39,770 nucleotides of DNA from Verrucomicrobiota bacterium (GCA_038209745.1 JBBQXJ010000041.1:1-39770); one strand, 5' to 3'. Counted from the first letter of the stretch, positions 609-38,838 are shown. The notes: generated from the letters alone by a model not told the origin. Made by a program: numbers and translations.

Positions 609-626
609 ATGGGGTGTTCTCCCAAT
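609..626 (-). promoter_or_regulatory. 18-bp upstream motif, copy A (ATTGGGAGAACACCCCAT on - strand)
   Basis: Matches the shared motif; 108 nt upstream of the minus-strand ATG at 500, same orientation as that gene. Confidence 0.6.
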
Positions 627-667
627 GCTATCCATAAAGCTAACCAGTAACGAGGCACTTTGGACTT

Positions 668-809
668 GGGAGCGCGCCCCTGGGCGAAGTGGACCGTGCC
701 CGAACGATTGATCGGAGATCCAGGAAGCGATTCACGGCGTGGTGTTTCCGGCCAATCCCGTATCCCGCGCGGGGCGCTCCGGACTACAGCCGGGGCGGCT
801 TCTATCCCC
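668..809 (+). repeat. Decayed ~143-bp intergenic REP/MITE-like element, copy 1
   Basis: Core 721-751 is 26/31 identical to 1670-1700; shared GGGAGCGCG start and TCCnGCGCGGGGC block at the same offset from the core. Confidence 0.7.
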
Positions 810-838
810 GTTTATTTCCGCTGCATCGTCCCGGCTTA

Positions 839-856
839 GTTCGGGTAACACCCCAT
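839..856 (+). promoter_or_regulatory. 18-bp upstream motif, copy B (GTTCGGGTAACACCCCAT)
   Basis: 90 nt upstream of the ATG at 947; -10-like TAAATT 21 nt downstream (878-883). Confidence 0.6.
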
Positions 857-946
857 AGAATCCTGCCCCACCCTCGCTAAATTTTGTAGCTCCAACGCCG
901 TGGAAACGACTCCACACTGGGAAACCATCAGAAGGAAAGAAGCGCT

Positions 947-1471
947 ATGAAGAACGAAACCAGGACCGTGAAACCGAGCACCAAAGGCACCGACTCCAAC
1001 CCGGATCCCATCACCGGCGCGCCCGGAGCCCATCCCGTCGGAACCGGGGTGGGCGCCACCGGCGGGGCCGTCGCCGGGGCCGCCGTCGGCGCCGTGGCCG
1101 GACCCATTGGGGCCGGGATCGGATTGGTGGCGGGCGCCATCGTCGGCGGATTGGCGGGCAAAGGAGTCGCCGAAAAAATGGACCCAACCGTCGAGAATGC
1201 CTATTGGAAGGCAAACTACTCCAAGCAGAAGTATGTGGATGCGGGCACGAAATTCGATGTCTTCCAGCCGGCCTACCGCGCCGGCTACGAGGGCCGAAAC
1301 AACTACCCTGGAAAGTCATACGAAGAGGTGGAAACCCTGCTCCAGCGCGACTACGAGAAGTCAAATGCGAACGTCGTTCTGCGTTGGGACAAGGCCAAAA
1401 AGGCGGCGCGCGACGCTTGGAACCGGGGAGAGAAGGCGGGCGAAAAGCGGGTCTTGTCGGCCACCACTTGA
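947..1471 (+). CDS. Glycine-zipper-containing conserved hypothetical protein
   Basis: 174 aa; NPDPITGAPGAHPVGTGVG, then GxxxG repeats (GGAVAGAAVGAVAGPIGAGIG...GGLAGKGVAE), then a DPTVENAYW...PAYRAGY...WDKAKKAARDAW domain; purine-rich leader. Confidence 0.85.
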   Translation: MKNETRTVKPSTKGTDSNPDPITGAPGAHPVGTGVGATGGAVAGAAVGAVAGPIGAGIGLVAGAIVGGLAGKGVAEKMDPTVENAYWKANYSKQKYVDAGTKFDVFQPAYRAGYEGRNNYPGKSYEEVETLLQRDYEKSNANVVLRWDKAKKAARDAWNRGEKAGEKRVLSATT

Positions 1472-1526
1472 ACGGCCGCAGTCCGCCCGTTGCCATGAGC
1501 CGCTCGAATGCCGAGGCTTCTTGATG

Positions 1527-1930: not shown

Positions 1931-1948
1931 ATGGGGAAAAGACCGTAT
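1931..1948 (+). promoter_or_regulatory. 18-bp upstream motif, copy F (ATGGGGAAAAGACCGTAT)
   Basis: 104 nt upstream of the ATG at 2053; -10-like TAAGAT 21 nt downstream (1970-1975), the same spacing as copy B. Confidence 0.5.
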
Positions 1949-2052
1949 TTCGCCCCGCTCATTATGGCATAAGATAAAAATGGGATGAGCGGTTGCAAAA
2001 GGAACCCCGGGAACTGCAATCGGTCAAACTGAACAAACTTCTAATAACACCC

Positions 2053-2799
2053 ATGACAACCCTACTCAGAATTTCGGGACGGTCGGCCGCGATTCCAGCT
2101 GCGGCGGCCCTCTTGATCGGAGTGTTCGCGACCCAAGCCACGGTCGTGTCGACCCCGCCCCAAGTGTTCCACTTTGGACCGGCCGCCGACAATTTCATGG
2201 CATCTGCTTATCTGGCGGCGTTCGACCAGGCGGGCACCCTGCTCAGTGTGCATCTCGAACTCTCGGGCGAGGCGGCCTTCGTCATGACGGCCAGCTCGGG
2301 CGCCAATCCAGGCACGGTGTCGAGCATGACGGAGAAGTCGCTTTTTTCCCTGACGGGACTCCCATTTGCCACGCCGCTCGGGTCCGCATCTCCCACCTTC
2401 TCGGTGGCACCGTTCGCCTTGGCCCCCAACTCGTCTCGATCGATCAGCGGAACGGTCCTGGCTCCGCTGGTCTCATCCGACCTGACGGTGTTTCCCGATC
2501 TCAACGCCTACGATGTGTCCAAAGGCGCTCCGGCCCATCTCCCATTTCTTTTCAACAGTCTGGAGGAATTCTCCTTCAGCAAGACGGGCAGCGGCCTGTT
2601 TGGCGGTTCCGATGTCCTTGGACTTGGGACGGTCACGGCTTGGTATACCTACGAAAACTCCACCCATCTCGTCCCTCCGCCGCCTCCGACGGTCGTTCCC
2701 GAGATGAGCTCCGCCGTCTTTGCCAGTGCCTTCGCGTTGGTCGGGATAGTTCGGCTGGTGCGGGGCCGAATGAACCACGAGCCGCAATGCGAACGATGA
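2053..2799 (+). CDS. PEP-CTERM-type surface protein, choice-of-anchor E-like domain
   Basis: Signal peptide MTTLLRISGRSAAIPAAAALLIGVFATQA; LAAFDQAGTLLSVHLEL near the N-terminus; GTVTAWYTY, poly-Pro linker, then VPEMSS + hydrophobic helix + RLVRGR basic tail. ATG 2053 preferred over TTG 1993. Confidence 0.8.
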   Translation: MTTLLRISGRSAAIPAAAALLIGVFATQATVVSTPPQVFHFGPAADNFMASAYLAAFDQAGTLLSVHLELSGEAAFVMTASSGANPGTVSSMTEKSLFSLTGLPFATPLGSASPTFSVAPFALAPNSSRSISGTVLAPLVSSDLTVFPDLNAYDVSKGAPAHLPFLFNSLEEFSFSKTGSGLFGGSDVLGLGTVTAWYTYENSTHLVPPPPPTVVPEMSSAVFASAFALVGIVRLVRGRMNHEPQCER

Positions 2800-3203
2800 A
2801 GCAGCTGATTCGAATCCTTCTTGCGGATGACGATGGCCCGATCCGCCGGATCATCAGCTGGGGTCTCCGGAGAGAAGGCTACCAAGTGGAGACCGCCGAA
2901 GACGGGGCCGACGCATGGGTCGCCCTGAAAGATCGGGAGTTCGACCTGCTCGTCACCGACAACCACATGCCGAAAATGTCGGGTATCCAACTGCTGCGGT
3001 TGATCAGGACGGCCCGGATGGTGATCCCGGTGGTCATGATCACGGGCTATTTTTCCCCGGATCAGTTCGGCCGCGACCCCGCGCTCCTTCCGACAGCCGT
3101 GCTCCAGAAGCCGTTCGAGATCACCGAACTGTTGGCGACGATCAGAAGCATCGAAGACTCGATCTCCGAGGGCCGCCCGAAAACCGCATTGCCTCAATTC
3201 TAA
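2796..3203 (+). CDS. Single-domain response regulator (CheY-like receiver)
   Basis: ILLADDD, DLLVTDNHMP (phosphoacceptor Asp), MITG, LQKPF; ATGA overlap with the upstream stop; no output domain. Confidence 0.9.
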   Translation: MKQLIRILLADDDGPIRRIISWGLRREGYQVETAEDGADAWVALKDREFDLLVTDNHMPKMSGIQLLRLIRTARMVIPVVMITGYFSPDQFGRDPALLPTAVLQKPFEITELLATIRSIEDSISEGRPKTALPQF

Positions 3204-3249: not shown

Positions 3250-5604
3250 ATGAACGCCAACCATAAAAACTGGCAACGGCACAATGGGCAGGCCCTCATG
3301 AAGGAGTCGCTGAGCCAGTCGGAACTGACCTACCGTCGGCTGTTCGAGGCGGCCCAGGACGGAATCCTGATCTTGGACGCGACCAAAGGACGCATCACGG
3401 ACGTAAACCCGTTCATGGAAAAGATGCTGGGGTTTTCCCATGAAGAGATGGTCGGCAAGACGGTCGGCGAACTGAGCCCGTTCAAGGACATCGTGTCCAA
3501 CCAGGAGATGCTGGAGCGCCTCCAAGCAGACGGCTACGTCCGCTATGACGATCTTCCCTTGGAAACGAGGGATGGCCGCCATATCGCCGTCGAGTTCGTC
3601 AGCAACGTCTATCAGGCGGGGAACCAACGGGTGATCCAGTGCAACATCCGCGACATCACCCGACGGAAAAAGACCGAGGAGCGGCTGTCTCTGCTCCATA
3701 CCTGCATGGCCAATCTGAATGAAATCGTTCTGATCACCGAGGCACGACCATTGGACGAGCCCGGACCCAAGATCGTTTTCGTCAACAATGCGTTCGAGCG
3801 GATCACGGGGTTTTCTTCGGACGAGGCCCTCGGGCGGAGTCCCCGGTTTCTCGAAGGCCGGGATACCGATCCGACAGTGCTCGCCGAGATTCGCGAAGCC
3901 ATGAGCCGGCATCGACCGATCCGAAGGCAGGTCCTCAACTACAGGAAAGACGAGGGCGAATACTGGCTGGACGTCGACATTGCCCCCATCCACAACGCGA
4001 AGGGAATATGCACCCACTTTGTGGCGATCGAGCGCGACATCACCGAGGAGAAGAACAACGCGGAACAGCTCCTCTGGAAAAGCGCCCTTCTGGAATCGCA
4101 GCTGGAGTCCTCGATCGACGGTATCCTGATCGTGGACAACTCGGGCCAACAGGTCGTCCAGAACCGAAGGATGGCCACGCTGTGGCATATTCCTCCTACG
4201 TTGGCCGAAACCAAAGACCAGGTCCTACAGCTCGAGTTCGTGAAGAACCGGGCCAAAGACCCGGCGGCGTTCATTGCAAAGGTGAACCATCTCTACGCCC
4301 ATCCAGAGGAGGTGGCCCAGGATGAGATCGAGCTGATCGACGGCACAATTTTGGATCGATACTCGGCCCCGATCCACGACAAGGCCGGAAAGCGCTACGG
4401 CCGGATCTGGTCCTTCCGGGACATCACCGAGCGTCGCAAGCTGGAGGCGAGGTTCCTCACGGCACAGAAGATGGAGTCGATCGGTCGACTGGCCGGGGGC
4501 ATCGCCCATGATTTCAACAACATCCTGACCGCCCTCATCGGCAACCTCGATCTTGCCTCCATGGAAGCCACGGGAAACACGCCTCGGATAAACCACTTGG
4601 CCGAGGCGTCGAAAGCCGCCAAACGAGCCACGGATCTGGTCAAGCAGATCCTGACCTTCAGCCGGGTTAATCCTCCCGACCGTGAGGCCGTCGTACTCAA
4701 CGACGTCGTTCTCGAGGCTCTCAGCCTTCTGCGGGCCAGCCTCCCAGCGGCCATCCGGATCCAGACCCAGTTTACGGCGACCCCGCCAGTATTGGCGCAT
4801 CCCACCGCGATCCATCAGGTGATCATGAACCTGGGCACCAACGGTTGGCATGCCATTGGCGAAAAGCCGGGCACGCTGAAGGTGGAGATAGGCGTCGTCC
4901 AAGTGGACGCCGATCTCGTCAAACAGCTTCCCGGGCTGGGGCTGGGCCCCCATGTCCGGCTCTCGGTGAGCGATACCGGATGCGGCATGGACAAGGCGAC
5001 GATGGACCGGATCTTCGAGCCGTTCTTCACCACCAAAGGCATCGGCCGAGGCACCGGTTTGGGACTGGCAGTGGTGCATGGGATCATGAAGAGCCACAAC
5101 GGCACCATCTCGGTCTACAGCCGCCCGAACGAAGGAACCACTTTCCGCCTTTATTTTCCGGCACTGGAAGGAATGACCGCCGTCAGCGAAGCCGAAGCGG
5201 GCCCGATCCCGCAGGGACACGGGGAACGCATCCTATTTGTCGACGACGACACCATCCTGGCCTCTCTCGGGAAAATGATCCTCGAACGCCTTGGCTATTC
5301 GGTGACCGTGACGACCACCGCACCGGAAGCCCTCGAAGCCGTTCAGATGGAGCCGAGCGCGTTCGATCTGGTCATCACCGATCTACACATGCCCGTGATG
5401 AATGGAACAACCCTGGCCGCCAGCCTCTTGAAGCTCCAGCCCAAGCTCCGGATCATCCTGACCACCGGAAAGAACGGCAGCATGCCACCCGAGGAAATCG
5501 AGAGCCTTGGCATCTGCGAGACGCTGGACAAGCCCTGCTCCATTCGAACAATGGCCGAGGCAGTCCACCGCGCACTTTCCTTCGGAACGGCCAAAGCCGC
5601 CTAA
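3250..5604 (+). CDS. Soluble 3xPAS hybrid sensor histidine kinase with C-terminal receiver
   Basis: Three PAS/PAC units each ending RDIT; H-box [12 protein letters not shown] boxes (MNLGTNG, VSDTGCG, FFTTKG, GTGLGL); receiver ILFVDDD...VITDLHMP...KP; no transmembrane segment seen. Confidence 0.95.
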
Positions 5605-5687: not shown

Positions 5688-5705
5688 GTGGGGAGAACAC
5701 CTTAT
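5688..5705 (+). promoter_or_regulatory. 18-bp upstream motif, copy C (GTGGGGAGAACACCTTAT)
   Basis: 14/18 identical to copy A; 71 nt upstream of the ATG at 5777. Confidence 0.55.
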
Positions 5706-5776
5706 GGTCTTCCGGCGCCGTTCCTCGACAAGGTGGCCTATAACAGTTCCTAAACCACTCCACCCCCAAAACTACC

Positions 5777-5974
5777 ATGTCTCTCACGTCCGTCGTAATA
5801 ACCTTGATCGTCGTCGGTGTGCTCCTCTGGCTGGTGAACACCTACATCCCGATGGACGCGAAGATCAAAAAAATCCTCAACGTGGTGGTCGTGATCTGTG
5901 TCGTCATCTGGCTGCTCTCCGCGTTTGGCGTCATCGGTCGCTCGGGAGACATCCGTATTCCCCAAGTCCGTTGA
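5777..5974 (+). CDS. Small two-helix membrane protein, Thivi_2564 family-like
   Basis: 65 aa: VVITLIVVGVLLWLVNTYIPMDAKIKKILNVVVVICVVIWLLSAFG matches the pattern I recall for this family. Confidence 0.85.
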   Translation: MSLTSVVITLIVVGVLLWLVNTYIPMDAKIKKILNVVVVICVVIWLLSAFGVIGRSGDIRIPQVR

Positions 5975-6589: not shown

Positions 6590-7918
6590 CTACAGGCCTT
6601 TTGTTTCCCAGCCCTTGCGGTAGGTCCGCCGCACATGTCGGTTGGCTTCGGCGACGTTGGTGAACTTCAGGTTCCGTGCGTCCCAATCCAGCGTCGTCTT
6701 CGGGTAGTAGGTCGCCACGCTGCCCAGCAGCACCGATTCGGTGAGAGGGCCGGCGTAGTCGAAGTTCGCCGAGGTCTTGCCGATGCCGCGGACCGCATCC
6801 ACGAACTGGTGCCAGTGGTCGGCGCCTTCGACGGCGGGGACCGCGAAGTCCTTGAACTTCGCATCCGGCAGCAGGATGGGCGGGGCGATGTGCGGGATGA
6901 CCATGACGCCATCGGTGCCGATGAGGATGGAGCCTTGATCGGGCAGCTCCCGGCCGGCGAGCAGGGCCGTGATCTCGGCGGGCGGACGCTGGTGGCCGTC
7001 ATACCATGTCACCTGGATCGGGCCGGGCACGGTGAACGGCGTGGCGGGAAAGACGTAGTGGATCACCGCGTTGGTCGCCCACGAATGGGCGTTCGGCGGC
7101 GCGCCTTCGCTCCGGACCGAAACGGGAGCGGTCAGCGCGAGCGCCTTGAAGACAGGGTCGAAGATGTGGCAGCCCATGTCGCCGAAGGTGCCGGTGCCGA
7201 AGTCGAGCCGTTTGCGCCAGTTCCCGGGATGGTACCAGCCGTCGCCGATGAACGGCCGGTCGGCGCAGACGCCCAGCCAAAGGTCCCAGTTGAAGTTGCC
7301 CGGCACGGGGTCGTGGCGTTCCGGCATGGCGCCGTTGTCGCCCCATTCCTTGCTGCTCCACGTGTGGACCTCCTTCACCTTGCCGATGGCGCCGCTCTGC
7401 ACGAGCTGGACGGCGAGCCGATATTCCCTGGCCGAATGGATCTGGATGCCCATCTGGGTCACGAGCTTCTTCTCGCGGGCGAACTCGGTCAGCCGGCGGG
7501 TCTCGTAGATGTCGTGGGTCAGCGGCTTCTGCCCGTAGACGTTGATGCCGCGCTGCATCGCCGCCATCGCGATGGACGCGTGCATGTGGTCGGGCGTGGA
7601 GACGTTCACCGAGTCGGGCTTCTCCTTTTCGAGCAGCACCCGGTAGTCGGAATACACCCGCGCGTCCGGGAACTTCTTGCGGAACTCCAGAGCCCGGTCC
7701 GCGTCCACCTCGGCGACCGCAACGATCTTCACCGCCTTGTGCGACGCGATGGAAGTCAGGTCGGCCCAGGCCATCCCCGACGCGCCAAAGCTGGCGTGCA
7801 GGACCTGGCCGGACGGCGGGTTCGCGAGGAGATTCCGCGTGATGAACGGCATGGCGAACGCGCTGGCGGCGCCGAATTTGAGGAACGATCTTCGTGAAAA
7901 GCGGTTCGGATTCTTCAT
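6590..7918 (-). CDS. Tat-exported Gfo/Idh/MocA family oxidoreductase
   Basis: SRRSFLK twin-arginine signal; VSTPDHMH, YGQKPL, QMGIQ, WDLWLG, GTGTFGDMGCH motifs. Confidence 0.92.
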   Translation of the reverse strand: MKNPNRFSRRSFLKFGAASAFAMPFITRNLLANPPSGQVLHASFGASGMAWADLTSIASHKAVKIVAVAEVDADRALEFRKKFPDARVYSDYRVLLEKEKPDSVNVSTPDHMHASIAMAAMQRGINVYGQKPLTHDIYETRRLTEFAREKKLVTQMGIQIHSAREYRLAVQLVQSGAIGKVKEVHTWSSKEWGDNGAMPERHDPVPGNFNWDLWLGVCADRPFIGDGWYHPGNWRKRLDFGTGTFGDMGCHIFDPVFKALALTAPVSVRSEGAPPNAHSWATNAVIHYVFPATPFTVPGPIQVTWYDGHQRPPAEITALLAGRELPDQGSILIGTDGVMVIPHIAPPILLPDAKFKDFAVPAVEGADHWHQFVDAVRGIGKTSANFDYAGPLTESVLLGSVATYYPKTTLDWDARNLKFTNVAEANRHVRRTYRKGWETKGL

Positions 7919-8354
7919 GGTGATGTGGGTGGAAGTCGGTCAGGAGACGAAGAGGAAGGCCTCGCTCTTCAGCGGCGCCCGGCAAAAGAACGGGAGATTC
8001 TTCGCCCGGATCAATCGGGCTGCGGCCAAAGCCTCGTCGGCCCACGGGAGCGGCCGGACGCGACCTGGATGCGGGGATTGCACGGCGGGAAATTGGCCGT
8101 CGCCGCCGTCGATGGCACGCGAAATCTAAGGGGCCCATCTTGGTCGGCCGGCACGACACCATTGCTTCCCGAAGAAGCAACGCGGCGACAAGCCACCCGG
8201 CCCCGAGCGACCTTTTGCCGGAAACCCAGGCCGCAGGGAGTTGGATCGAATCCGCATGGACGGCGCGGCAAGCCCGAAAACACCGGGGCCGAGAACGGAG
8301 CGAGGAATTCTGCTGCCGGCTGCTGGAGAGCCAGTCGCAAAGCGGCGCCAGGAG

Positions 8355-9866
8355 CTACCGCGGCTCGCGGGTCGGAATTTCGTTCAACCAATAGTAGGCC
8401 TCGGGGTGGAGGAGCGGTTTCCCTTGGGCCGACTTCACCCCGGGCAGTTTCAGTTCGTGGATGTGTCCGGGGGTGAGCTTGACCTTGAGCCGGACGCTCC
8501 TGCCGTCCGCGCCGACGGTGGCGGATTCAATGGGCGGTTTCTCGCGGTCGACTTCCGGGGAACCGTAGCTCGCCTGGTAGATGTAGGTGTAGTTCTCGAA
8601 CGTGTAGGCCGCCACGTCGCCGGCGGTCCCCGGGTCCACGGGTTCGGTGAAGGTCAGCTCGAAGCCGTCGGGTTCGGCGTGCATCTCGTGGATCTCGAAC
8701 GGCGTCCGGCCGCTCCAGACGATGCGCTGGAGGGCAAAGGGTTTGCCGCCTCGTGCGCCCCAACCACGGTCGGTGCCGCCCGCGAAGAGCGAACCGTCCG
8801 CGGCAAACTCCAGGCTCAGCGTGCCGGAGTCCAGTCCCTCACGGAAAGGGAAGCACGCGCCTTGATAGACGCCGTTCACCTTCTCCAGGTAGACGCGCAT
8901 CACGGTGCTCCAGGTCTGGTCGCCGACGAAGAGCTGGTTGGCGAACGGGCCGAACTTGCCGCCCGAGAAATCGTTCGCGATGCCCGAGGCGCTCTGGCCC
9001 ATTTTGTTGTAGGGAAAACCGATCGCCGGGGGGACGAACTCCTTCATCTTGGCGCGCTCGGCGGCGATGCGGCTGTTGCTGGACGGCTCCTTCGGGGCCG
9101 GACCGAGATTCGTCGCGAGCGAATACCATTTGAAGCCCGACGGGTTGCCGTTGAAGCCGCCCGGCACCAGCGGCTTGAGCCAACAGGTGCCGTTCCACGG
9201 ACCCTGGTTGTCGGTGTAGAACATGTCGCCCAGATGGTTCGTGGCGATGCCGCCGGGTGACCGGATCCCGCTGGCCGAGGGGATGACCTTGCCTTCCGGC
9301 GTCACGCGCAGGGCCCAGCCGCGGAACTCGTTTTCGCTGGTGAACGATCCGGTCAGACAGAGCACGACCCAGATGTTGCCGTCGCGATCGGGCTTCGAGC
9401 CGAAGGCGTATTCGTGGTAGTCGCCGCCGATGCCCCAGCCGTCGGCGAACGTCTCGAACTCATCCGCCCGACCGTCGCCGTCCGTGTCCCTGAGCCGGGT
9501 GATCTCGCCCCGCTGGGTGGCGTAGAACCAACCGTCCTTGCCCTGGAACAAGCCCAGCACCTCGTGAAGCCCGGAGGCGAACCGGGTGAACTTCGCCTTG
9601 GCCGGCGGGTTCTGAAACGCCCCGTCGACGAAGTAGATGTCACCGAGCCGCGTCGAGACGGCGAGCCGTTGGTTCGGCAGGGCGGCGATGGCGCCGGCTT
9701 CCAGCACGATGCCCTCGGGAATCGGCACCGTGATCAGCGGATAGAACTCGGCTTCGCGCTCGGCCGTGGACGCGCCCAAGGCGCCGAACGACCCCCATCC
9801 GAGGGCCAAGAACCAGACCGAGCAGACAACGGTCGAGGACCGGCGAATGAAGTGGGGGAGTTTCAT
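8355..9866 (-). CDS. Secreted beta-propeller protein (sorbosone/glucose dehydrogenase-like, PVC cytochrome partner)
   Basis: Signal peptide from [57 protein letters not shown] blocks. Confidence 0.75.
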
Positions 9867-9924
9867 CGTATGAGGAGAAAAAGTTGAGGATGGGACTTCG
9901 GTCATCGGTCTTGGGTCGTTCCGT

Positions 9925-12681: not shown

Positions 12682-12981
12682 GGGCCGACTGTTCTATCGA
12701 GTCGGGCACCCGTGCAACCTTTGGAGGGCTCCGGCCGAAAGATTCTGCACGTCGGGCCGGCATAGACCGGCCGTCGGGGCCACCCCAGCGGTCAGGCGAA
12801 GCACGCGGCGTCCAGCACGGTCAGAACCCCGGGAGATTTCCTCCGCCCCTTCCGGACTGGCCAGCGGTGCCCGGTTCGCGACAAAACCGGGGAGTGCCTC
12901 CAAACCCAAAAACCGGATGGGTAGCGTGCGAGAAGAGAACGCTCAAATACGGGTAAGGAATGAAGACGGAACACGGCCGGA

Positions 12982-14379
12982 CTAGCTGATGATCTCCATG
13001 ATCGGACCGTCCCCGTCTTCGACCAGGCGAGACACCGGGCCGAGGGCCGGGAGTTCCATCTTAGTGTGGTCGATGCCGAGCTGGTGCAGAATCGTGGCGT
13101 GGAGGTCGCTGTAGTAGTGCCGGTTCTCCACGGCCTGGTAGCCGACCTCATCGGTGGCGCCATGAACGAGGCCACCCTTGATCCCACCGCCGGCCATCCA
13201 AGCAGTGTATCCCTTCGGGTTGTGGTCGCGGCCGGTGGTGTTTTGCGACCACGGAGTGCGGCCGAATTCGCTGGTCCAGACCACCAGCGTTTCGTCGAGC
13301 ATGCCGCGTTGTTTCAGATCCTTGATGAGGCCGGCGATCGGCTTGTCCGTGGCCCGGCAGAGCGGCTCGTGGGTTTTCATGTCACCGTGGGAATCCCAAC
13401 CCCCGTTGCCACCTCCGGCGTGGCAAACCTGGATGAAGCGAACCCCTCTTTCAGCAAGCCGGCGGGCGACAAGAAGCTGTTTCCCGAACTCCCCGGTGTG
13501 CGTTTCGTCGATCCCATACAGGGATCTGATGGGAGCGGATTCGCCCGACAAATCGACGGCTTCGGGCGCCGACATCTGCATGCTGGCCGCCAGTTCATAA
13601 GCCTTGGTCCGGGCCTGGATGTCCAAGTTGATCGCGTAGCGGTGGCGGAACTCCCCGTTCATGGTTTCCAACAACTGCATCTGCCGATCGCGTTCGGCGC
13701 CCGATCCGCCCTTGGGCGGGGCGAGGTTCGGGATGGGCGTCTCACCGGCCTGAAAGGGCGTGGCCGAAACGGATGCGCCGAGGTAGCCGCCGGTGAGCTG
13801 CACCGGCGAGGACGGCCGCCCAATGTTCACGAACGTCGGGAGATTCTTGTTGGCCGCGCCGAGCGCATAGGAAACCCAACTCCCGAAGGAGGGATGATCG
13901 AACGCCCGGCCACGATGCCCGGTGCACGTTTCAATCACTGCGGGAAAGTGGTTGCCTTCATGGCACCACATCGACCGAACGACCGCGATGTCGTCGACGA
14001 CGCTTCCGACGTTCGGAAACCAGTCGGAAACGGGCGTGCCGGACTGGCCGTATCGCGTGAAGGTGCGCAGACAGGGGATGACCGGGCGTTTCATCTCGGC
14101 CTGGTTGTCGCCGAAGCCGATCGCGTCGATGAATTTGCCGGCGTGCTTGTTGTCTTTCGGATCGAAGGTGTCGATATGGCTGACGCCCCCGCACATGAAG
14201 AGGAAGATGACCGACTTCGCCCGGGGCTTGAAATGCGGACCCAGAATCGCGTTTTCGATCTCGCCCGCCTCGGACAAAAGGCCGCCCAAAGCCGCTCCCA
14301 AAAATCCACCTCCGGCCCGGAACAGGAAGCTGCGCCGCGAGAGTTCTCCGAGTCGAAGTTGTTCTGCGTTACCTGACAT
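12982..14379 (-). CDS. DUF1501 domain protein (Tat signal)
   Basis: SRRSFL; AKSVIFLFMCGGVSHIDTFDPK; ARRLAERGVRFIQ; WDSH; SEFGRTP; GRDHNP; DLHATILHQLG; start overlaps the upstream stop. Confidence 0.92.
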   Translation of the reverse strand: MSGNAEQLRLGELSRRSFLFRAGGGFLGAALGGLLSEAGEIENAILGPHFKPRAKSVIFLFMCGGVSHIDTFDPKDNKHAGKFIDAIGFGDNQAEMKRPVIPCLRTFTRYGQSGTPVSDWFPNVGSVVDDIAVVRSMWCHEGNHFPAVIETCTGHRGRAFDHPSFGSWVSYALGAANKNLPTFVNIGRPSSPVQLTGGYLGASVSATPFQAGETPIPNLAPPKGGSGAERDRQMQLLETMNGEFRHRYAINLDIQARTKAYELAASMQMSAPEAVDLSGESAPIRSLYGIDETHTGEFGKQLLVARRLAERGVRFIQVCHAGGGNGGWDSHGDMKTHEPLCRATDKPIAGLIKDLKQRGMLDETLVVWTSEFGRTPWSQNTTGRDHNPKGYTAWMAGGGIKGGLVHGATDEVGYQAVENRHYYSDLHATILHQLGIDHTKMELPALGPVSRLVEDGDGPIMEIIS

Positions 14380-17107: not shown

Positions 17108-17125
17108 GTCAGGAAAACACCCCAT
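17108..17125 (+). promoter_or_regulatory. 18-bp upstream motif, copy D (GTCAGGAAAACACCCCAT)
   Basis: Shares the exact 11-mer AACACCCCATA with copies A and B; 160 nt upstream of the first gene of the long plus-strand operon. Confidence 0.6.
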
Positions 17126-17990: not shown

Positions 17991-18033
17991 GCCGGGTTCT
18001 AAATTTTTCGATCCTATCCTACGACCCATTTAC

Positions 18034-19184: not shown

Positions 19185-19190
19185 CATAAA

Positions 19191-30783: not shown

Positions 30784-30813
30784 AGGTGGATGGAATCTGA
30801 CAACAGTGAAATC

Positions 30814-31848
30814 ATGAAAAAGAAAAACACCCGCCAGCTTGGAATGATCGGTTTGGGTCGCATGGGCGGCGCGATGGTCCGTCGCCTGATCAAGGATGGT
30901 CACAGATGCGTGGTCTTCGACCGCTCATCCAAACCGGTCAAAGCGTTGGAAAAATTCAAGGCCACTGGCGCCTCCTCTCTCGCGGACCTCGTGAAGAAGC
31001 TCAAGGCGCCGCGAGCGATCTGGCTGATGGTTCCCGCCGCCGCCGTCGACGCGGCCATCGCGGACCTCCTGCCGCTGCTCGATCGCGGGGACATCCTGAT
31101 CGACGGGGGAAACTCCTACTACGTGGACGACCTCCGCCGGGCCAAGGAACTTGCCGAGAAGGGAGTCCACTATGTCGACGTCGGCACGAGCGGCGGTGTC
31201 TGGGGAGAGGAGCGCGGCTATTGCCAGATGATCGGCGGCGAACCGGCGATCGTGGAGCACCTCGATCCCATCTTCGCGACGCTGGCACCGGGACGCGGCG
31301 ACATTCCGCGAACGAAGGGCCGCGCGAAACGGAGTGGCACTGCGGAAGAAGGCTACCTGCATTGCGGGCCGAACGGAGCGGGGCACTTCGTCAAGATGGT
31401 CCACAACGGCATCGAATACGGCCTGATGGCGGCCTACGCCGAAGGCCTCGCCGTTCTGCGCGCCGCCAACGTCGGCCACCAAACGACCGCCGCCAACGCC
31501 GAGACCACGCCGCTGCGGCATCCTGCGAACTATCAGTTCGATCTCCCGCTCGGCGACATCGCCGAAGTCTGGCGCCGCGGCAGCGTGATCGCTTCCTGGT
31601 TGCTCGACCTGACGGCCAACGCCCTCGCGGGCGATCCGCAACTCGCCCAGTTCGAGGGCCGCGTCTCCGACTCGGGCGAAGGCCGCTGGACCGTCAAGGC
31701 GGCCATCGACGAGGGCGTTCCGGTGCCCGTGCTGAGCGCGGCGCTCTATGCCCGGTTCAGTTCCCGGGGACAGGCGGATTATCAGGACAAGGTTCTTTCC
31801 GCCCTGCGCTACCAGTTCGGCGGTCACGCCGAGGAACCCATCCACTGA
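30814..31848 (+). CDS. gnd: Decarboxylating 6-phosphogluconate dehydrogenase (short YqeC/GntZ-like form)
   Basis: [51 protein letters not shown]. Alternative start at 30790. Confidence 0.95.
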
Positions 31849-31858
31849 GGCAACCAAC

Positions 31859-32356
31859 ATGCGCGTCGGCATCGCGGCGGATCATGGAGGTTTCGGCCTC
31901 AAACAGGAAATCGCGGCCCGTCTCCGCGAAGCAGGCCATGACGTCACGGATTTCGGGGCCCACCACCTCAACCCCGATGACGACTATCCCGACTACGTGA
32001 ATCCGCTCGCCCAAGCCGTGGCCACCGGGACGGTGGACCGGGGCGTGGCCGTTTGCGGCAGCGGAGTCGGCGCGTCGATCTGCGCCAACCAGTTCTCCGG
32101 TGTCCGAGCCTGTTTGATCCACGACACTTTTTCAGCGCGGCAAGGCACGGAGGACGACCACATGAATGTGATCTGCCTCGGTGGCAGGACGGAGGGTCCG
32201 GCCGTGGCCTGGGAACTTGTGCAAACCTTCCTGGCCGCCGTCTTCAGCCAGGCACCGCGCCACCTTCGGCGAATCCGGCAAGTGGAGATGATCCGCCGCC
32301 CAAGCAACGTCGCCGCCCCCGCAGTCAGCCCCCTTCCTTCAGGAGTCAACCGATGA
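31859..32356 (+). CDS. rpiB: Ribose-5-phosphate isomerase B (RpiB/LacA/LacB family)
   Basis: [36 protein letters not shown]. Confidence 0.9.
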
Positions 32357-33915
32357 GCCCACCGAAACCATCCGATCAACTTGAACCCACCCTGTTCGCC
32401 ATCTTCGGCGGTGCGGGGGATTTGGCGTGGCGAAAACTCGTGCCCGCTCTTTTCGACCTCTCGCAGGATCGGAGCCTGCCCGAGAAGTTTGCCATCATCG
32501 CGATCGACCGCATGAAGCTCGGCGACGCCGCGCTCAGGAAGCGGCTGCAAGACGGAGTCGTCCGTTTCTCCCGGTTTGGAAGACCGAAGCCGGCGGCGTG
32601 GGATCAGTTCGCCCAACACATCTCCTATCTGCCGGGCGACTTCAAAGAGACCGCCACCTACGCGGCGCTCGGCGCTCGTTGCGCGAAACTGGAGAAGACC
32701 TGGGGAACCAAGGCGCATCGGATCTTCTACATGGCGACGCCGCCGTCCATGTTCGGCGAAATTCCGAAGTACCTCGGCAAGGCCGGCCTCGCGCACGACC
32801 GGAAACGGGCCCGCATCGTGGTGGAGAAGCCGATCGGCTACGACCTGTCCTCGGCGCTCGCCCTCAATGCCGTGCTCGGGGCCAGCTTCGCCGAATCCCA
32901 GATCTTCCGCATCGACCACTATCTCGGAAAGGAAACGGTGCAGAACATCCTGGCGTTTCGTTTTGCGAATCCCCTGTTCGAGCCTCTCTGGAACCGCCGC
33001 TATGTGGAGCACGTGACGATCACGGTGGCCGAGGCGGTGGGCGTCGAGCATCGCGGCGGCTACTACGACCATGCCGGTGCGCTGCGGGACATGGTGCAGA
33101 ACCACCTCATGCAGTTGCTCTGCCTCGTGGCCATGGAGCCGATGGTGTCGTTCGAGGCCGACGAGATCCGGAACAAGAAGGTCGATGTCCTCCACGCCGT
33201 CCGTCCGATCCATCACGATCAGGTCCGCGAGGTGGCCGTGCGCGGCCAGTATGGTCCGGGGCTTTTCGCCGGAAAAAAGGCGGCCGGCTATCGCGAGGAA
33301 GAGGGCGTGTCCGCCGATTCACGAACCGAGACGTTTGCCGCGCTGAAGCTGAACATCGACAACTGGCGCTGGCAGGGCGTGCCGTTCTATCTGCGCACCG
33401 GCAAACGGATGCCAAGTCAGGTGTCGGAAGTCGCGATCCAATTCCGGGCCGTGCCTCACCAGGCGTTCCCGCCCGATGCCTCCCTCGGCTGGCAGCCCTC
33501 GCGTCTCATCATGTCGATCCAACCCGACGAGGGCATCGTGCTGGGCTTTCAGGCGAAATACCCCGGGGCCAAGATGCAGCTGCGTCCGGTGGACATGCGT
33601 TTCAACTACCGCGACAGCTTCGCCGTCCCCTCGCCGGACGCCTACGAGACGCTGCTCTGGGACGTGATGAAGAACGACGCCACCCTCTTCATGCGGGCGG
33701 ACCAGATCGAGGCGGCGTGGGGGTTGCTGACGCCCGTGCTCGACGTGTGGACGGCCACCCCGCCGAGCGACTTCCCCAATTACGCCGCCGGCACGTGGGG
33801 ACCGGAAGCCACCCAGGATCTACTGGAGCCCGGACATCATTGGTCGGCTCCGACGGAACTCAGAAAGCCCATCGCGAAAGCCTGTCGGGTGCCGGCCAAA
33901 AAAGCGCGCCGATGA
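32353..33915 (+). CDS. zwf: Glucose-6-phosphate dehydrogenase
   Basis: [55 protein letters not shown] overlap with rpiB. Confidence 0.97.
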
Positions 33916-34556
33916 AAAAGCCGACGCCGATCAAAGCCCTCTTCGTGGATATCGGCGGCGTTCTCCTGACGAACGGCTGGGACCATCTTGCACGCCGGGA
34001 GGCGGCCGCGCAGTTCCACCTGGATTGGCCGGGAACGGAGGAGCGGCACCGCTTGAACTTCGCCACGTTCGAGGAAGGCAAGCTCACGCTGGAGGACTAC
34101 CTGACCCGGGTCGTTTTCCACGAGCCAAGAGCGTTCACCCGCGCCCGGTTTCGTCGCTTCATGTTCGCGCAATCGAAGCCCTTCCCGGAGACGATCGATC
34201 TGGTTCGCCGGCTCAAAGCCCGCCACGGACTCAAGATCATCGTGGTGAGCAACGAAGGCCGGGAACTCAACGAGCATCGGATTCGCACCTTCAAACTCGC
34301 CGGGCTCGTGGATGCCTTTGTCTCGTCCTGCTTCGTCCATCTGCGCAAACCCGACGCGGAAATTTTCCGGCTGGCACTCGATCTTGCGCAGACCCCGCCC
34401 GCGCAGATCGTCTTTCTCGACAACACCGCGCTCTTCGTCCAAGTAGCGGCGGAGCTCGGCATTCGCGGCATCGTGCACACCGACGTCGAAGACACCGGGA
34501 AAAAGCTGGCCGCACTGGGATTGAACTGTCCGGGACCAGTGGGAGGTCGACGATGA
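33912..34556 (+). CDS. HAD-superfamily phosphatase (YihX/glucose-1-phosphatase-like)
   Basis: FVDIGGVL (motif I), VVSN (motif II), RKPDAEIF and FLDN (motifs III/IV); ATGA overlaps on both sides. Confidence 0.88.
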
Positions 34557-35755
34557 AAGGCCCCGTTCCGAGCGTGCTGACGGTCAACGGCGGCTCATCG
34601 AGCATCAAATTCGCGCTGTTCGAGGTGGGCACGGCTGCCGAGCGGATCTTCGCCGGAAAGATCGAGGGTATCGGCCAGCCCCAAGGGCGAATGACCGTGA
34701 AGGGCTCGGACGATGACGACACCTTCTCACGACCGCTGGCCGTGTCCGATCATCCGGGGGCGGTCGGCGTGTTGATGGATTGGCTGCAGCCGCGAATCGA
34801 TCGCGGCGCTTTGGCCGCCATCGGGCATCGGGTGGTGCATGGTGGGCCGAAGCACTGGGAGCCGACCCGCATCACCCCGGAACTCGTGGAGGAACTGCGC
34901 GGGATCATCCCCTTCGATCCTGAACACTTGCCGGAGGAGATATTACTGACCGAGGCGTTTCACCGCCGCTTTCCGAAGCTGCCCCAGATTGCCTGTTTCG
35001 ACACCGCGTTTCATCACGACCTGCCCCGCGTGGCGCAGCTCCTACCGATCCCGCGCCGCTATGAAGCGCAGGGAGTGCGGCGCTATGGGTTCCATGGATT
35101 GTCCTACGCCTACCTGCTGCAGGAACTGGAGCGCTTAGCGGGAAAGCAGGCCGCCGAAGGGCGCGTGATCCTCGCCCATCTGGGCAACGGCGCGAGCATG
35201 GCGGCGGTCCGGGGCGGACGTTGCGTGGACACTTCCATGGCGTTTACGCCGGCCTCCGGGCTGGTAATGGGAACACGATCGGGCGACATGGATCCGGGAC
35301 TCGCTTCGTTTCTCGCCCGGAGCGAGCAAATGACCCCGGAGCAATTCGACCGGATGATGAATCATCGATCGGGCCTCCTCGGCGTCTCGGAAACCAGCTC
35401 CGACATGCGCAACCTGCTCGACCGCGAATCGCACGACGCGCGGGCTGCAGAAGCCGTGGCTTTGTTCTGTTACCAGGCGAAGAAGTGGATCGGTGCCTAC
35501 ACCGCCGCGCTCGGAGGGCTCGACACCTTGGTTTTCGCTGGAGGCATCGGAGAGAACGCCCCTCCCGTCCGAAACCGCATTTGCGGAGGACTGGACTTCC
35601 TCGGACTCGAACTCGACGAGTCGCGCAATGCGAAAACTGCCGCGGTGATCTCCACCGATGCCAGCCGCGTCACGGTTCGGGTCATCCGCACCGACGAAGA
35701 GCTGATGATTGCGCGGTCGGTGTGTCGCGTGCTCGGACTCGACCCTGCCGCTTGA
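34553..35755 (+). CDS. ackA: Acetate/propionate kinase
   Basis: NGGSSSIKF, GHRVVHGG, FDTAFH, RRYGFHGLSY, HLGNGASM, GTRSGD, FAGGIGENA, TDEE. Confidence 0.93.
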   Translation: MKGPVPSVLTVNGGSSSIKFALFEVGTAAERIFAGKIEGIGQPQGRMTVKGSDDDDTFSRPLAVSDHPGAVGVLMDWLQPRIDRGALAAIGHRVVHGGPKHWEPTRITPELVEELRGIIPFDPEHLPEEILLTEAFHRRFPKLPQIACFDTAFHHDLPRVAQLLPIPRRYEAQGVRRYGFHGLSYAYLLQELERLAGKQAAEGRVILAHLGNGASMAAVRGGRCVDTSMAFTPASGLVMGTRSGDMDPGLASFLARSEQMTPEQFDRMMNHRSGLLGVSETSSDMRNLLDRESHDARAAEAVALFCYQAKKWIGAYTAALGGLDTLVFAGGIGENAPPVRNRICGGLDFLGLELDESRNAKTAAVISTDASRVTVRVIRTDEELMIARSVCRVLGLDPAA

Positions 35756-35800
35756 AAACAATGCGCGCCGACGCGACAGGCTTTGGGAAACATCAACGCC

Positions 35801-36994
35801 ATGAATTTTATCGCCCTTAAAATGCTGTTCGGTGACCGCACCAAATACGCGGGGCTGCTCTTCGGCATCACGTTCACCTCGTTTCTCGTCACGTTCGCGG
35901 CTTCCTACTTCGGCGGAATGATGACCCGCAGCTTCGCTCTTATTGCCGAGAACCCGAGGGCCGACGTGTGGGTCATGGATGCGGCCATGGTGGCGGTGGA
36001 TCGCCCGATCAACCTGCCCGCGTCGGCCCTCGACCGCGTGCGCAGCGTGGCGGGCGTGCAATCCGCCGTGCCGCTGGCGCTGGCCCAGGCGGACGCCCGT
36101 TTTCCGAACGGACGGTTCCAATCGTTCCAGGTGATCGGGGTGGACGATGCGACGCTCACGGGCGTGCCCGAGATGAAAGGCGGGGCGACGGCTGCCGTGC
36201 TTCGAGCTCCCGACGCCGTGATCGTTGATCCAGGCGGCACCAGCGGAAAACTCGCGACGCCATTGCTGAAGGCCGACCAATGGCCTCGCGGCCGGCCGCA
36301 CTTGGAAGTGCCGATGCGCCCCCTGATCGTGGGCGACGAACTTCTGATCAACGACAACCGCGTCCGGGTGGCGGGGCAATCGCAAGCTCTGCCCCGATTT
36401 CCGCCGCGGCCACTACTGTTCACGACCTACTCCACCGCCGAACGCATCTTGTTGCCGGAGCGGCGGCGGTTGACGTTTGTGCTCGCGACCGCCGCGCCCG
36501 GGGTGGATGCGCACATGCTCGCCGACCGCATTGAAGCGGCCACGGATCTTCGCGCCCGGTCTTCGGACGATTTCGAGTCGGACACGGTCCATTGGATGAT
36601 CGCCAACTCCGAAGACGTGGGCGACGCGGTAACGATGCTTTCCATCGCCATGCTCGTCGGCTTCGGCGTCACCGGCGTGATGATGTTCATGTTCACCACG
36701 GAAAACCTGAAGTATTACGCGGTGCTCAATGCCATGGGGGCGAGCACGCGAACGTTGCTGATCATGATCTGTGTGCAGTCCGCGCTTTGCGCGCTGTTGG
36801 GGACGGGATTGGGCCTGGGCCTATGTGCTCTCGCCGGCCGGGTATTTGTGAGCTTTGACTTTCCTTATCGTATGATGTGGTTCGCGCCAGTGGTGGGAGG
36901 CTCGGCGGTCGTGCTCGTCAGCATTGGGGCGGCGGCATTCAGCGTGAGGCCCATATTGAAGATGCAACCAGCCTCGTTTTTGGCCGGAAGGTAG
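35801..36994 (+). CDS. ABC exporter permease (FtsX/MacB/DevC-like)
   Basis: N-terminal TM helix, ADVWV...RVRSVAGV periplasmic domain, YAVLNAMGAS and three C-terminal TM helices. Confidence 0.9.
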   Translation: MNFIALKMLFGDRTKYAGLLFGITFTSFLVTFAASYFGGMMTRSFALIAENPRADVWVMDAAMVAVDRPINLPASALDRVRSVAGVQSAVPLALAQADARFPNGRFQSFQVIGVDDATLTGVPEMKGGATAAVLRAPDAVIVDPGGTSGKLATPLLKADQWPRGRPHLEVPMRPLIVGDELLINDNRVRVAGQSQALPRFPPRPLLFTTYSTAERILLPERRRLTFVLATAAPGVDAHMLADRIEAATDLRARSSDDFESDTVHWMIANSEDVGDAVTMLSIAMLVGFGVTGVMMFMFTTENLKYYAVLNAMGASTRTLLIMICVQSALCALLGTGLGLGLCALAGRVFVSFDFPYRMMWFAPVVGGSAVVLVSIGAAAFSVRPILKMQPASFLAGR

Positions 36995-37009
36995 GCGCGA
37001 AACGCCGTC

Positions 37010-37771
37010 ATGTTCATCACCATGGAAACGCCTGCTGAACCAACCATAAAAAAGACCGCTGTGAGCTGTCGCGGCGTGACCAAGACGTACGGTCAAGGCA
37101 ACGCCGCCGTGCAGGCGCTCCGGGGTGTGGACCTGGAAGTTCGCTTGGGCGAGTTGTTGATGCTGGTCGGCCCATCAGGCTGCGGGAAGACGACGCTGCT
37201 TTCCGTGCTGGCCGGCCTGTTGCAACGTGACGGCGGTGATTGCTCCGTCCTCGACCACGACTACAAGCAGACATCCGGCAAAGAAACGACACGGTTTCGT
37301 GGGCGGAACATCGGCTTCGTCTTTCAAGCGTTCAACCTGATTCCCACGCTCACTGCGGCCGAAAACGTGGCCACGCCCCTCCTGATCAACGGCGCGAAGC
37401 GGCGCGCGGCGCTGGAGCAGGCGGGGGCCGTGCTGACCAAGGTGGGATTTGACGAACGTATGGTCCGCTCCTTGCCCGCAGATCTGTCCGGTGGCCAGCA
37501 GCAGCGTGTGGCCGTCGCCCGCGCAATGGTCCACGAACCGCGAATGTTCGTCTGTGATGAGCCGACCAGCGCGCTCGACAGCGAGAGCGGCCACATGGTT
37601 ATGACTTTGATGCGGCAATTCGCGCTGGGCACGGACCGCGTGCTGGTGGTGGTCACGCATGACGCCCGCATCTTCGAATTCGCCGATCGCATCGCCCGCA
37701 TGGAGGATGGCCGGATCACCCGGATTGAAAATCCACCAGGCCGCCGGAATGAACCGCCGCAGAATCCATAG
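37010..37771 (+). CDS. ABC transporter ATP-binding protein (LolD/DevA-like)
   Basis: Walker A GPSGCGKT, Q-loop GFVFQ, LSGGQQQR, CDEPTSALD, VVTHD. Confidence 0.95.
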   Translation: MFITMETPAEPTIKKTAVSCRGVTKTYGQGNAAVQALRGVDLEVRLGELLMLVGPSGCGKTTLLSVLAGLLQRDGGDCSVLDHDYKQTSGKETTRFRGRNIGFVFQAFNLIPTLTAAENVATPLLINGAKRRAALEQAGAVLTKVGFDERMVRSLPADLSGGQQQRVAVARAMVHEPRMFVCDEPTSALDSESGHMVMTLMRQFALGTDRVLVVVTHDARIFEFADRIARMEDGRITRIENPPGRRNEPPQNP

Positions 37772-37779
37772 GACCACTC

Positions 37780-38700
37780 ATGTTTCGCAAATACATCATC
37801 CCCCTGGTTGCGCTGGCTGGTGTTGCCCTCGCCATATTTACCGTCGTTCGGGGTGGTCGCAAACCGCCGTCAGTGCCGCCGTTTTCAGAAGCGCCGCAAT
37901 CGCCCTATCAATCGTCGGTGACCGGATCCGGCATCCTCGAAGCCAACACGGAGAATATTTCCATCGGCACCCAGATCGCCGGCATCGTGGCCAAGATTTT
38001 CGTCCAGATCGGCAGCGACGTAAAGGCGGGCGATCCGCTGTTCAAAATAGATGATCGGTCACAGCGGGCTGAAGTGGAGATTCGGCAGGCGACGGTCCAG
38101 ATTGCGGAGGCACAACTGGCCGACGCCCAATACGAACTTGAACTCGCCCGATCGCTCGCAGCCGACCGCATCACGAGCGTCGAGGCGAGAGACCAAAAGC
38201 GTTTTGCCGCCCAAAAAGCCTTGGCGCAACTGGCGGAAGCGCGAGCGGAGCTGAAGTCCAGCGAAACAGATTTGGAGCGGTTGACCGTTCATGCACCCGT
38301 GGACGGCCGGGTGCTACAACTCAAAGTTCACCTTGGGGAATTTGCGCCGGTTGCGGCCACGGCCGCGGGAGAGCCACCGTTGATCCTTCTTGGCAGTGTC
38401 ACACCGCTGCATGTGCGCGTCGACGTGGACGAAAACGATGCGTGGCGCGTGCGGGCCGGCGCGACTGCGATCGCCTTCCTCCGTGGCAACAAGCATATCA
38501 AGACGCCACTGGCCTTTGTGCGGTTTGAACCCTACGTGGTGCCGAAGAAATCGCTTACGGGAGACAGTGCCGAACGGGTTGATACCAGGGTGCTGCAGGT
38601 GATCTTCAGTTTTGAACGCGGCGATCTGCCAGTCTTCGTCGGCCAGCAAATGGACGTGTTCATCAACACCCCGGACGCCGCAGACAATAAAAGCCAATAA
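37780..38700 (+). CDS. HlyD/DevB-like periplasmic adaptor (membrane fusion protein)
   Basis: N-terminal TM; lipoyl-like halves GIVAKIFVQIGSDVKAGDPLF and VHAPVDGRVL around a coiled coil; ERVDTRVLQV. Confidence 0.9.
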   Translation: MFRKYIIPLVALAGVALAIFTVVRGGRKPPSVPPFSEAPQSPYQSSVTGSGILEANTENISIGTQIAGIVAKIFVQIGSDVKAGDPLFKIDDRSQRAEVEIRQATVQIAEAQLADAQYELELARSLAADRITSVEARDQKRFAAQKALAQLAEARAELKSSETDLERLTVHAPVDGRVLQLKVHLGEFAPVAATAAGEPPLILLGSVTPLHVRVDVDENDAWRVRAGATAIAFLRGNKHIKTPLAFVRFEPYVVPKKSLTGDSAERVDTRVLQVIFSFERGDLPVFVGQQMDVFINTPDAADNKSQ

Positions 38701-38820
38701 GGCTGACAAAGGTCGAGGACACGATTGAGGACACCACCCAAGGCAGGCCCCCCCGTGATTCCTACAGGCCTTCAGACAGAATAGACACTCGGGCTTCAAA
38801 GTGGGATCAGCCTGTTTCAA

Positions 38821-38838
38821 GGTAGGGTTTCACCCAAT
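38821..38838 (+). promoter_or_regulatory. 18-bp upstream motif, copy E (GGTAGGGTTTCACCCAAT), divergent
   Basis: Keeps the invariant GG, ACC and AT positions; 119 nt upstream of the ATG at 38958; CAAATT 22 nt downstream. Confidence 0.4.

Follow-up and report, generated by a model that had tools for sequence, protein, structure and literature searches.

Why does one 18-bp motif stand, always in the same orientation, ahead of six transcription units of a single contig? The question is raised by contig C41 of a Verrucomicrobiota bacterium (GCA_038209745.1, JBBQXJ010000041.1), the whole of which, 39,770 nt, is the window analyzed here. The source genome (G000) is a 4.58-Mb draft of 140 contigs with 63% G+C, and its closest loci belong to Verrucomicrobiota of the Limisphaerales/Pedosphaera type, nearly all of them metagenome bins. 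A preliminary description, made from the window alone, had read the motif as the dyad of a dimeric activator, possibly of the NarL/LuxR family, that co-regulates stress genes. We find that the motif, hereafter the box, is real, is conserved across the order (Limisphaerales/Pedosphaerales-type Verrucomicrobiota) and is a promoter element. Its register with the -10 hexamer and its association with one regulator gene point to a class II activator site, predicted to be bound and used for activation by a NarL/LuxR response regulator of the type encoded on contig C121. We put the probability of this reading at roughly 0.6.

Consensus, length and symmetry of the box

The six 18-mers of the preliminary description were all found at the right coordinates and on the right strands. 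When they were scored by leave-one-out, five reached 14.7–21.1 bits, and the site at 38821 was an outlier at 7.5 bits. The window contains 11 occurrences of the skeleton GGNNNNNACCNNAT, a number reached by none of 100 shuffles, which averaged 4.72 (standard deviation 2.11, maximum 10). An Rfam scan of the whole window matched no family, which means that no known RNA element accounts for the box regions.

A first matrix was built from the six 18-mers and scanned over 80 loci surrounding PRC-barrel orthologs in other genomes (475,035 bases). This returned 182 matches of at least 12 bits and 105 unique sites of at least 16 bits, with the consensus GGTAGGGTAACACCCCATRGC; another common form, ATGGGGTGAACACCCCAT, is perfectly palindromic. 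At these 105 sites, positions 19–21 proved to be conserved (R 0.96, G 0.92, C 0.89) though they lie outside the search matrix. The proposed length of 18 nt has to be extended to 21 nt by the RGC triplet. A second matrix, 21 nt long and trained on sites of other genomes only, was then used to rescore the window and G000; it is referred to below as the relatives' matrix.

The dyad proposed for a dimeric protein also holds. Sites were anchored on the right half alone (CACCCCATRGC) in order to remove circularity for the left half, which remained conserved in the resulting 97 unique sites (G5 1.00, G6 0.96, A10 0.94). Near-perfect 8+8 palindromes account for 23 of the 97, and the less symmetric GGTAGGGTWA form for 36.

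The word AACACCCCAT, noted earlier in three of the copies, is present four times in the window, namely in those three and at 499–508(-). As an over-represented word it was rejected: 8 of 100 shuffles reach four copies, and the whole genome holds 8, close to the 6 or so estimated by hand from the base composition. Because its genome-wide frequency is near chance, the 10-mer alone is weak evidence, and position matrices were used instead. The additional occurrence at 499–508(-) overlaps the ATG of gene 3–500(-) in the context ..CACCCCATGAAA..; its left half is absent, the relatives' matrix gives nothing of at least 5 bits there, and it is probably due to chance.

Promoter geometry

The relation of the box to the downstream promoter elements was followed in the 105 relatives' sites. 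A TAnnnT hexamer starts 21, 22 or 23 nt past box position 18 in 72 of them, and the looser nAnnnT is found at this distance in 101, compared with 0–6 in five out-of-register control windows downstream. A frame-opening ATG follows the -10 hexamer by 4–9 nt (mostly exactly 6) in 50 of the 105 sites. Transcripts from these ATG-proximal promoters are predicted to be leaderless, with the A of the ATG as first base. Judged by this layout, about half of the box promoters would be leaderless (50/105; e.g., L027:2202 and L058:2225, among the relatives' loci L016–L095), a notable share for one regulon. In G000, the arrangement of box, hexamer, 6 or 7 nt and ATG was recognized by eye at 4 of 10 sites (C63:25408, C32:342, C121:7894 and C16:57257).

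Since leaderless ATGs fix the transcription start, the box would span approximately -53 to -34, with its centre at -42.5 to -44.5; by the same inferred geometry, the RGC triplet at its end falls inside the -35 hexamer. Class II activators such as LuxR and TraR typically bind at sites centred in this range. Ordinary promoters of G000 appear canonical, with TTGACA (at most one mismatch) standing 16–18 nt ahead of TAnnnT in 75 of 1304 cases, versus 10–22 at five other spacings. No TTGACA-like -35 is seen in the box promoters, whose positions 19–24 read RGCnCC across the 105 relatives' sites. Of the canonical primary-sigma promoter, they possess the -10 half (TAnnnT) and lack the -35 half, and for want of a canonical -35 they should depend on a helper. 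The fixed -10 register and the spacing of the leaderless ATGs make the box a promoter element, in all likelihood one that is centred near -43 and takes the place of the -35. The class II position suggested earlier from three window promoters is in line with this geometry.

Occurrence in the genome and across the order

Scanning G000 with the relatives' matrix yielded 11 matches of at least 16 bits, 10 of them noncoding, whereas 20 column-shuffled matrices averaged 1.4 matches and 0.4 noncoding ones, with a maximum of 2 noncoding (for words in the window, 100 shuffles served as control). Five of the 10 noncoding matches lie in the window, at 606(-), 839, 5688, 17108 and 38821; the others are C121:6306, C121:7894, C63:25408, C32:342 and C16:57257. 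As read from the match list, all 10 point at a downstream co-directional gene, so that the orientation bias first seen in the window extends to the genome.

To assess the distribution of the box, the exact 13-mer WACACCCCATRGC was counted in 151 genomes of the order. It occurs 236 times; 66 genomes have a match, 19 have at least four, and the maximum is 18, while a back-to-front control pattern never exceeds two per genome in the same set. Outside the order (200 other genomes, from the class and phylum), the count per genome never exceeds three, and 38 of 201 have any match. The copies cluster in islands, e.g., seven on contig C15 of G100 within 45 kb. As a marker of presence or absence, the exact 13-mer was discarded as too strict: G000 has no exact copy yet 10 matrix matches, so a count of zero does not show absence.

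Conservation at orthologous promoters holds for part of the genes. The ortholog of gene 38958–39458 has a palindromic box about 170–190 nt upstream in both same-genus genomes that hold the gene (2/2), and in the same-genus G005 the PRC-barrel ortholog has a box 144 nt upstream; for the glycine-zipper gene, the G002 copy is truncated at the end of its contig, and the G001 copy is taken up below. In the full-text literature covered, which leaves subscription journals and supplements outside, no description of the box was found, and the matching letter strings were primers. The box and its regulon thus appear to be undescribed.

A candidate regulator beside the box

An operon on contig C121 of G000 encodes a CheB/CheR/PAS protein, a PAS-PAS-HisKA_3 kinase and a response regulator of the NarL/LuxR type with REC and GerE domains. 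It is divergent from two copies of the box, with a third copy nearby. To extend this observation to other genomes, the best ortholog locus of the regulator was taken from each of 29 other genomes (63–76% identity, 1.5-kb flanks), and a box was counted at 14 bits or more within 1.5 kb. Boxes were present at 19 of the 29 loci (26 boxes in 99,760 bases). In 17 of the 19, the box lies 7–614 nt past the stop codon of the regulator gene, on the same strand, and at locus L121 a box precedes the operon's kinase gene by 107 nt. The same procedure applied to 29 control loci (95,428 bases), homologs of an extracytoplasmic function (ECF) sigma factor encoded near the box on C32, found the box at none. The suggestion of a NarL/LuxR-type regulator has thereby gained a specific candidate.

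Regulator orthologs (at least 60% identity) are also located within 3 kb of the PRC-barrel gene at loci L054, L087, L082 and L023, with partial ones at L022 and L062. Clustering of 781 open reading frames from 109 loci gave a list of 45 recurrent families, 32 of which were identified (29 scanned representatives plus PRC-barrel, the regulator and Dps). The regulator is the sole DNA-binding family among these 32 identified families, the other 15 of the 45 listed having never been scanned. A regulator homolog (E <= 1e-77) occurs in 18 of the 19 genomes with at least four exact WACACCCCATRGC copies versus 33 of the 132 others, a contrast for which Fisher values overstate the association, related genomes not being independent.

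The nearest solved relatives of the full regulator are VraR (3.1e-37), NarL (5.9e-32), DesR and DevR (5.9e-25); when the DNA-binding domain is taken by itself, the closest are EsrB, EL222 and VraR (12 matches at E <= 1e-6). With a dyad of about 16–20 bp, a predicted centre in register with the -10 and a linked REC and GerE regulator, the box has the features expected of a putative class II GerE site.

Two side observations concern this regulator and its kinase. Genome G099 (C73, C151 and C153) has four close copies of the regulator with 65–69% identity. An exact box lies within about 300 nt of three of these copies and about 2.5 kb from the remaining one, on C153, which suggests that the regulator and box were duplicated as a module. 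The HisKA_3 kinase of relatives (L118:2250–3377(-), a cluster of 38 members) shows a weak RsbU_N-like N-terminus (25.2 bits against a cut-off of 25.5) where the G000 kinase carries two PAS domains; this hints at input from an RsbT- or stressosome-like partner.

Box copies in the window and their genes

The copies of the box and the surrounding genes are listed below, with scores from the relatives' matrix and gene functions from Pfam matches.

606–626, minus strand: copy 1, ATTGGGAGAACACCCCATATC, 27.1 bits; before the secreted protein gene 3–500(-)
839–859, plus strand: copy 2, GTTCGGGTAACACCCCATAGA, 26.8 bits; before the glycine-zipper gene 947–1471; TAAATT at 878–883, 21 nt on
1931–1951, plus strand: copy 3, a weak candidate, 9.0 bits; TAAGAT at 1970–1975, exactly 21 nt on
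2053–2799, 2796–3203 and 3250–5604: genes behind copy 3, encoding a PEP-CTERM-like protein with no family match, a receiver-only regulator and a hybrid PAS kinase, respectively
5688–5708, plus strand: copy 4, GTGGGGAGAACACCTTATGGT, 17.5 bits; before the gene of a 65-aa membrane protein, 5777–5974
6590–16978, minus strand: block of oxidoreductase, cytochrome c, DUF1501 and PSCyt2/PSD1 genes
17108–17128, plus strand: copy 5, GTCAGGAAAACACCCCATACC, 22.6 bits; before the PRC-barrel gene 17286–17990 and a co-directional run; AATATT at 17149–17154, 23 nt on
17286–35755, plus strand: co-directional run encoding PRC-barrel, Dps-like ferritin, DUF2934, class I aldolase, phosphoglucomutase (PGM), a 2908-aa GH94/cyclic glucan synthase-like protein, 6-phosphogluconate dehydrogenase (6PGD), RpiB, G6PD, HAD hydrolase and acetate kinase
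between this run and 38958–39458: ABC/MacB/HlyD gene set
38821–38841, plus strand: copy 6, GGTAGGGTTTCACCCAATAGC, 20.0 bits; before the gene of a Met-rich secreted protein, 38958–39458; CAAATT at 38861–38866, 22 nt on

Rescoring sustained five of the six sites, at 17.5–27.1 bits, and left the one at 1931 weak. The distances of 71–160 nt between box and start codon were confirmed on reading the sequence, and so was a good -10 register at 839, 1931, 17108 and 38821. A weaker reverse copy that had been noted at 1823–1840 scores -19.2 bits and is not a site. As had been reported, the motif is missing before the minus-strand genes of 6590–16978: nothing of 8 bits or more lies ahead of them, and the single 9.2-bit match there falls in coding sequence.

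Gene 947–1471 behind copy 2 has a weak Gly-zipper_Omp match. The small membrane protein family of 5777–5974 also occurs behind a box in relatives (cluster of 4), and receiver-only regulators, such as the one behind the weak copy 3, recur there as box targets. PRC-barrel orthologs have boxes at 60 of the 80 loci, the matrix having been trained on those same loci. Transcription from copy 5 would reach along the 17286–35755 run, and the PGM, 6PGD, RpiB and ferritin genes of this run recur in the islands of relatives.

The remaining noncoding matches in G000 have the following targets.

C32:395–3285 (L003), behind the C32:342 box: a 531-aa protein with two PRC-barrels and BON, a YflT-like glycine-zipper protein and DUF892 (YciF-like)
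C63: a 27-aa membrane peptide
C121: a small protein, a receiver-only regulator and a lipoprotein; also a DUF7354-like secreted protein
C16: an ice-binding-like secreted protein

In relatives, the regulon comprises PRC-barrel, a CBM48/AMPK-type glycogen-binding protein, a 150-aa lipoprotein, DUF2934, Dps/ferritin, the small membrane protein family, YflT/glycine-zipper proteins, receiver-only regulators, PAS kinases, MlaA, transglutaminase-like proteins, PGM, 6PGD and RpiB. This set matches that of the window and, judged from the protein families, suggests a programme of general stress response, storage or osmoprotection. The stress regulon proposed for the window is accordingly seen in both G000 and relatives, with Dps, PRC-barrel, YflT/glycine-zipper, BON, DUF892, DUF2934, small membrane and sugar/pentose-phosphate targets.

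Two features of the window were noted in addition. In the 2908-aa protein (22057–30783), GT2-like and glucoamylase-like regions are joined to GH94 domains, the layout of a cyclic beta-1,2-glucan synthase; its gene is set among pentose-phosphate and glycolytic genes after the PRC-barrel and Dps genes. An intergenic dispersed repeat of about 170 nt is present at 655–835 and 1596–1790 (80% mean column identity), and one of its copies ends at box copy 2. The copy at 655–835 gave 35 BLAST matches across G000, at 66–88% identity, and is without an Rfam match.

Alternative explanations

Several observations weigh against a class II activator site of the C121-type regulator. The commonest form of the box, GGTAGGGTAAC..., is a poor palindrome whose left half is shifted by 1 bp. 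In the window, the sole good -10-like hexamer behind copy 1 (606–626(-)) is TATTTT at 594–589, 14 nt away and not 21–23, and copy 4 has a poor -10, CAAGGT at 5729–5734 (23 nt), with TATAAC at 5739–5744 (33 nt). Conservation at orthologous promoters breaks down in G001, where no box of at least 8 bits is present within 1.5 kb upstream of the glycine-zipper ortholog. The link to the regulator is also incomplete: 10 of the 29 ortholog loci have no box within 1.5 kb, the regulator's own operon in G000 has no clear correctly oriented box (8.1 bits), and the overstated Fisher values noted above belong here too. Finally, the linkage could simply reflect a regulator gene that sits inside a stress island under the control of another factor.

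The box might instead be the -35-side element of promoters specific to an alternative sigma factor, e.g., of the ECF or stress type, a reading that we consider unlikely. It would account for the strict orientation and for the placement of the most conserved part, AACACCCCATRGC, over the -35 position, and the box contains 'GTAAC/TGAAC', which may resemble ECF -35 words. Sigma factors are also at hand, with 38 Sigma70_r2 matches in G000, including one at 4.3 kb from the box on C32 and another at 5.5 kb from that on C16. ECF promoters, however, combine an 'AAC' word at -35 with a CGT-type -10 at a spacing of 16–17 nt, whereas the -10 of the box promoters is TAnnnT, primary-sigma-like, and no conserved block lies 16–17 nt past AAC. 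Many sites are palindromic out to about -53, and no sigma family is found among the 32 identified island families (15 of the 45 listed being unscanned). The C32 ECF sigma factor was rejected as the regulator of the box: close orthologs of it are missing from the order (43% identity at best), the control loci with its homologs are without the box, and a tblastn search with it gave no match in the PRC-barrel loci. The set of an AAC -35, a CGT-type -10 and a motif-linked sigma gene that marks ECF or alternative-sigma promoters is thus absent, one of the 38 sigma genes having been tested for linkage.

Improbable as well, in our estimate, is a repressor operator, at which the same regulator or another dimeric protein would block the -35 region until stress. 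The box promoters should be weak unaided, since they lack the TTGACA of ordinary promoters, and a centre at about -42.5 to -44.5 is typical of class II activators. Still, the dyad overlaps the -35 position, and the linkage evidence says nothing on the sign of regulation.

It is quite improbable that a transcription factor of another family, encoded elsewhere, binds the box and that the NarL-type regulator is merely a member of the island. This would explain the regulator loci without a nearby box and the 33 genomes with a close regulator homolog but few exact boxes; few exact 13-mers, however, do not equal no boxes, as the counts for G000 illustrate. A cNMP-binding protein that recurs in 4 loci could be considered for the role, but it showed no DNA-binding domain, and no DNA-binding family other than the regulator is among the 32 identified island families, again with 15 of 45 unscanned.

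Readings of the box itself as a core promoter were rejected: a sigma-32-like one (CCCCAT as -10) and a SigB-like one (GGGTAT as -10) because no conserved -35 was seen by eye at the required upstream spacing, and a sigma-54 one because the GG/GC spacing does not fit.

Proposed mechanism and significance

For the class II activator site, we hypothesize the following mechanism. The box would be the operator of a promoter class that serves a general stress regulon (of the stationary-phase, osmotic or desiccation type) in Limisphaerales/Pedosphaerales. The regulator, an ortholog of the protein encoded at C121:461–1141(-) in G000, would be phosphorylated by the adjacent HisKA_3 kinase and then bind the 18–21-bp dyad as a dimer. 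The centre of the dyad would lie some 43 nt before the transcription start, with the promoter-proximal half of the dyad, AACACCCCATRGC, over the -35 position. Bound there, the regulator would recruit RNA polymerase with a primary-type sigma factor to promoters in which a TAnnnT -10 is present and a TTGACA -35 is missing. The sequences show the box, its fixed register with a -10 hexamer and with leaderless start codons, its conservation, the families of its targets and its genomic linkage to the regulator gene; binding of the box by this regulator, activation rather than repression and the kind of inducing signal are inferred.

An alternative sigma factor controls the general stress response of Firmicutes, Proteobacteria and Alphaproteobacteria. 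A broader proposal, which we regard as evenly balanced between true and false, is that in this order the response may be run by a single NarL/FixJ-type regulator, acting through a 21-bp box that replaces the -35 at some 10–20 promoters per genome, about half of them leaderless, and not by an alternative sigma factor. If true, a two-component regulator would hold the role that alternative sigma factors have in the general stress response of model bacteria, and the islands would carry an undescribed stress or dormancy programme with feedback by receiver-only regulators.

Subdivision-3 Verrucomicrobia are abundant in soils and peat and are represented mostly by metagenome bins; to our knowledge, almost nothing is known of their transcription control. 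The present analysis yields a precise promoter architecture (box, -10 and leaderless start) together with a defined stress gene set and a candidate regulator with its kinase. As a sequence tag, the box can be used for regulon prediction in hundreds of genomes and for the reading of metatranscriptomes.

Comparison with known systems

The system is of a known kind, a two-component regulon with a dyad box. With NarL and NarP, of the NarL/FixJ family, it shares a candidate regulator of REC and GerE domains beside a HisKA_3 kinase and the predicted binding of a dimer to an inverted repeat. The NarL site is a pair of TACYYMT heptamers in 7-2-7 arrangement. The box differs from it in reading ATGGGGTG-NN-CACCCCAT, with G-rich cores opposite in direction to the NarL heptamers of the general consensus, and its targets are stress proteins, whereas those of NarL are respiration genes.

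The likeness to DosR that was suggested earlier holds at the level of the family and fails for box spacing, flanks and orthology. Shared with DosR/DevR of mycobacteria are a regulator of the NarL family, a GGG...CCC palindrome just upstream of the -10 and clustering in islands. The DosR box is a 20-bp GGGACT-WW-AGTCCC palindrome; neither ATGGGGTGAACACCCCAT nor GGTAGGGTAACACCCCATRGC has its GGGACT..AGTCCC cores, the G run is separated from the C run by 6 nt here and by 8 in DosR, and the flanks differ. Nor does the candidate appear to be the ortholog: DevR (3c3w), at 5.9e-25, ranks behind VraR, NarL and DesR, and the 12 matches of the candidate's DNA-binding domain at E <= 1e-6 do not include it. 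Moreover, unlike in the DosR regulon, no USP or Acr genes are found among the Pfam-scanned targets of the window and relatives.

The lux- and tra-boxes of LuxR and TraR resemble the box in their 18–20-bp palindrome near -42.5 (predicted here at -42.5 to -44.5), in the missing -35 and in the use of a GerE dimer. LuxR and TraR, however, sense acyl-homoserine lactones via an autoinducer domain, whereas the candidate is a receiver protein that would be controlled by phosphorylation.

In its content, the regulon is comparable with those of Bacillus SigB and alphaproteobacterial EcfG, which likewise include Dps, PRC-barrel, the general stress protein YflT, glycine-zipper, BON and small membrane targets and have receiver-only regulators and PAS kinases in their circuit. 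It differs from both in its promoters, which combine a primary-type -10 with a dyad box, and in the linked gene, which encodes a two-component DNA-binding protein instead of a sigma factor.

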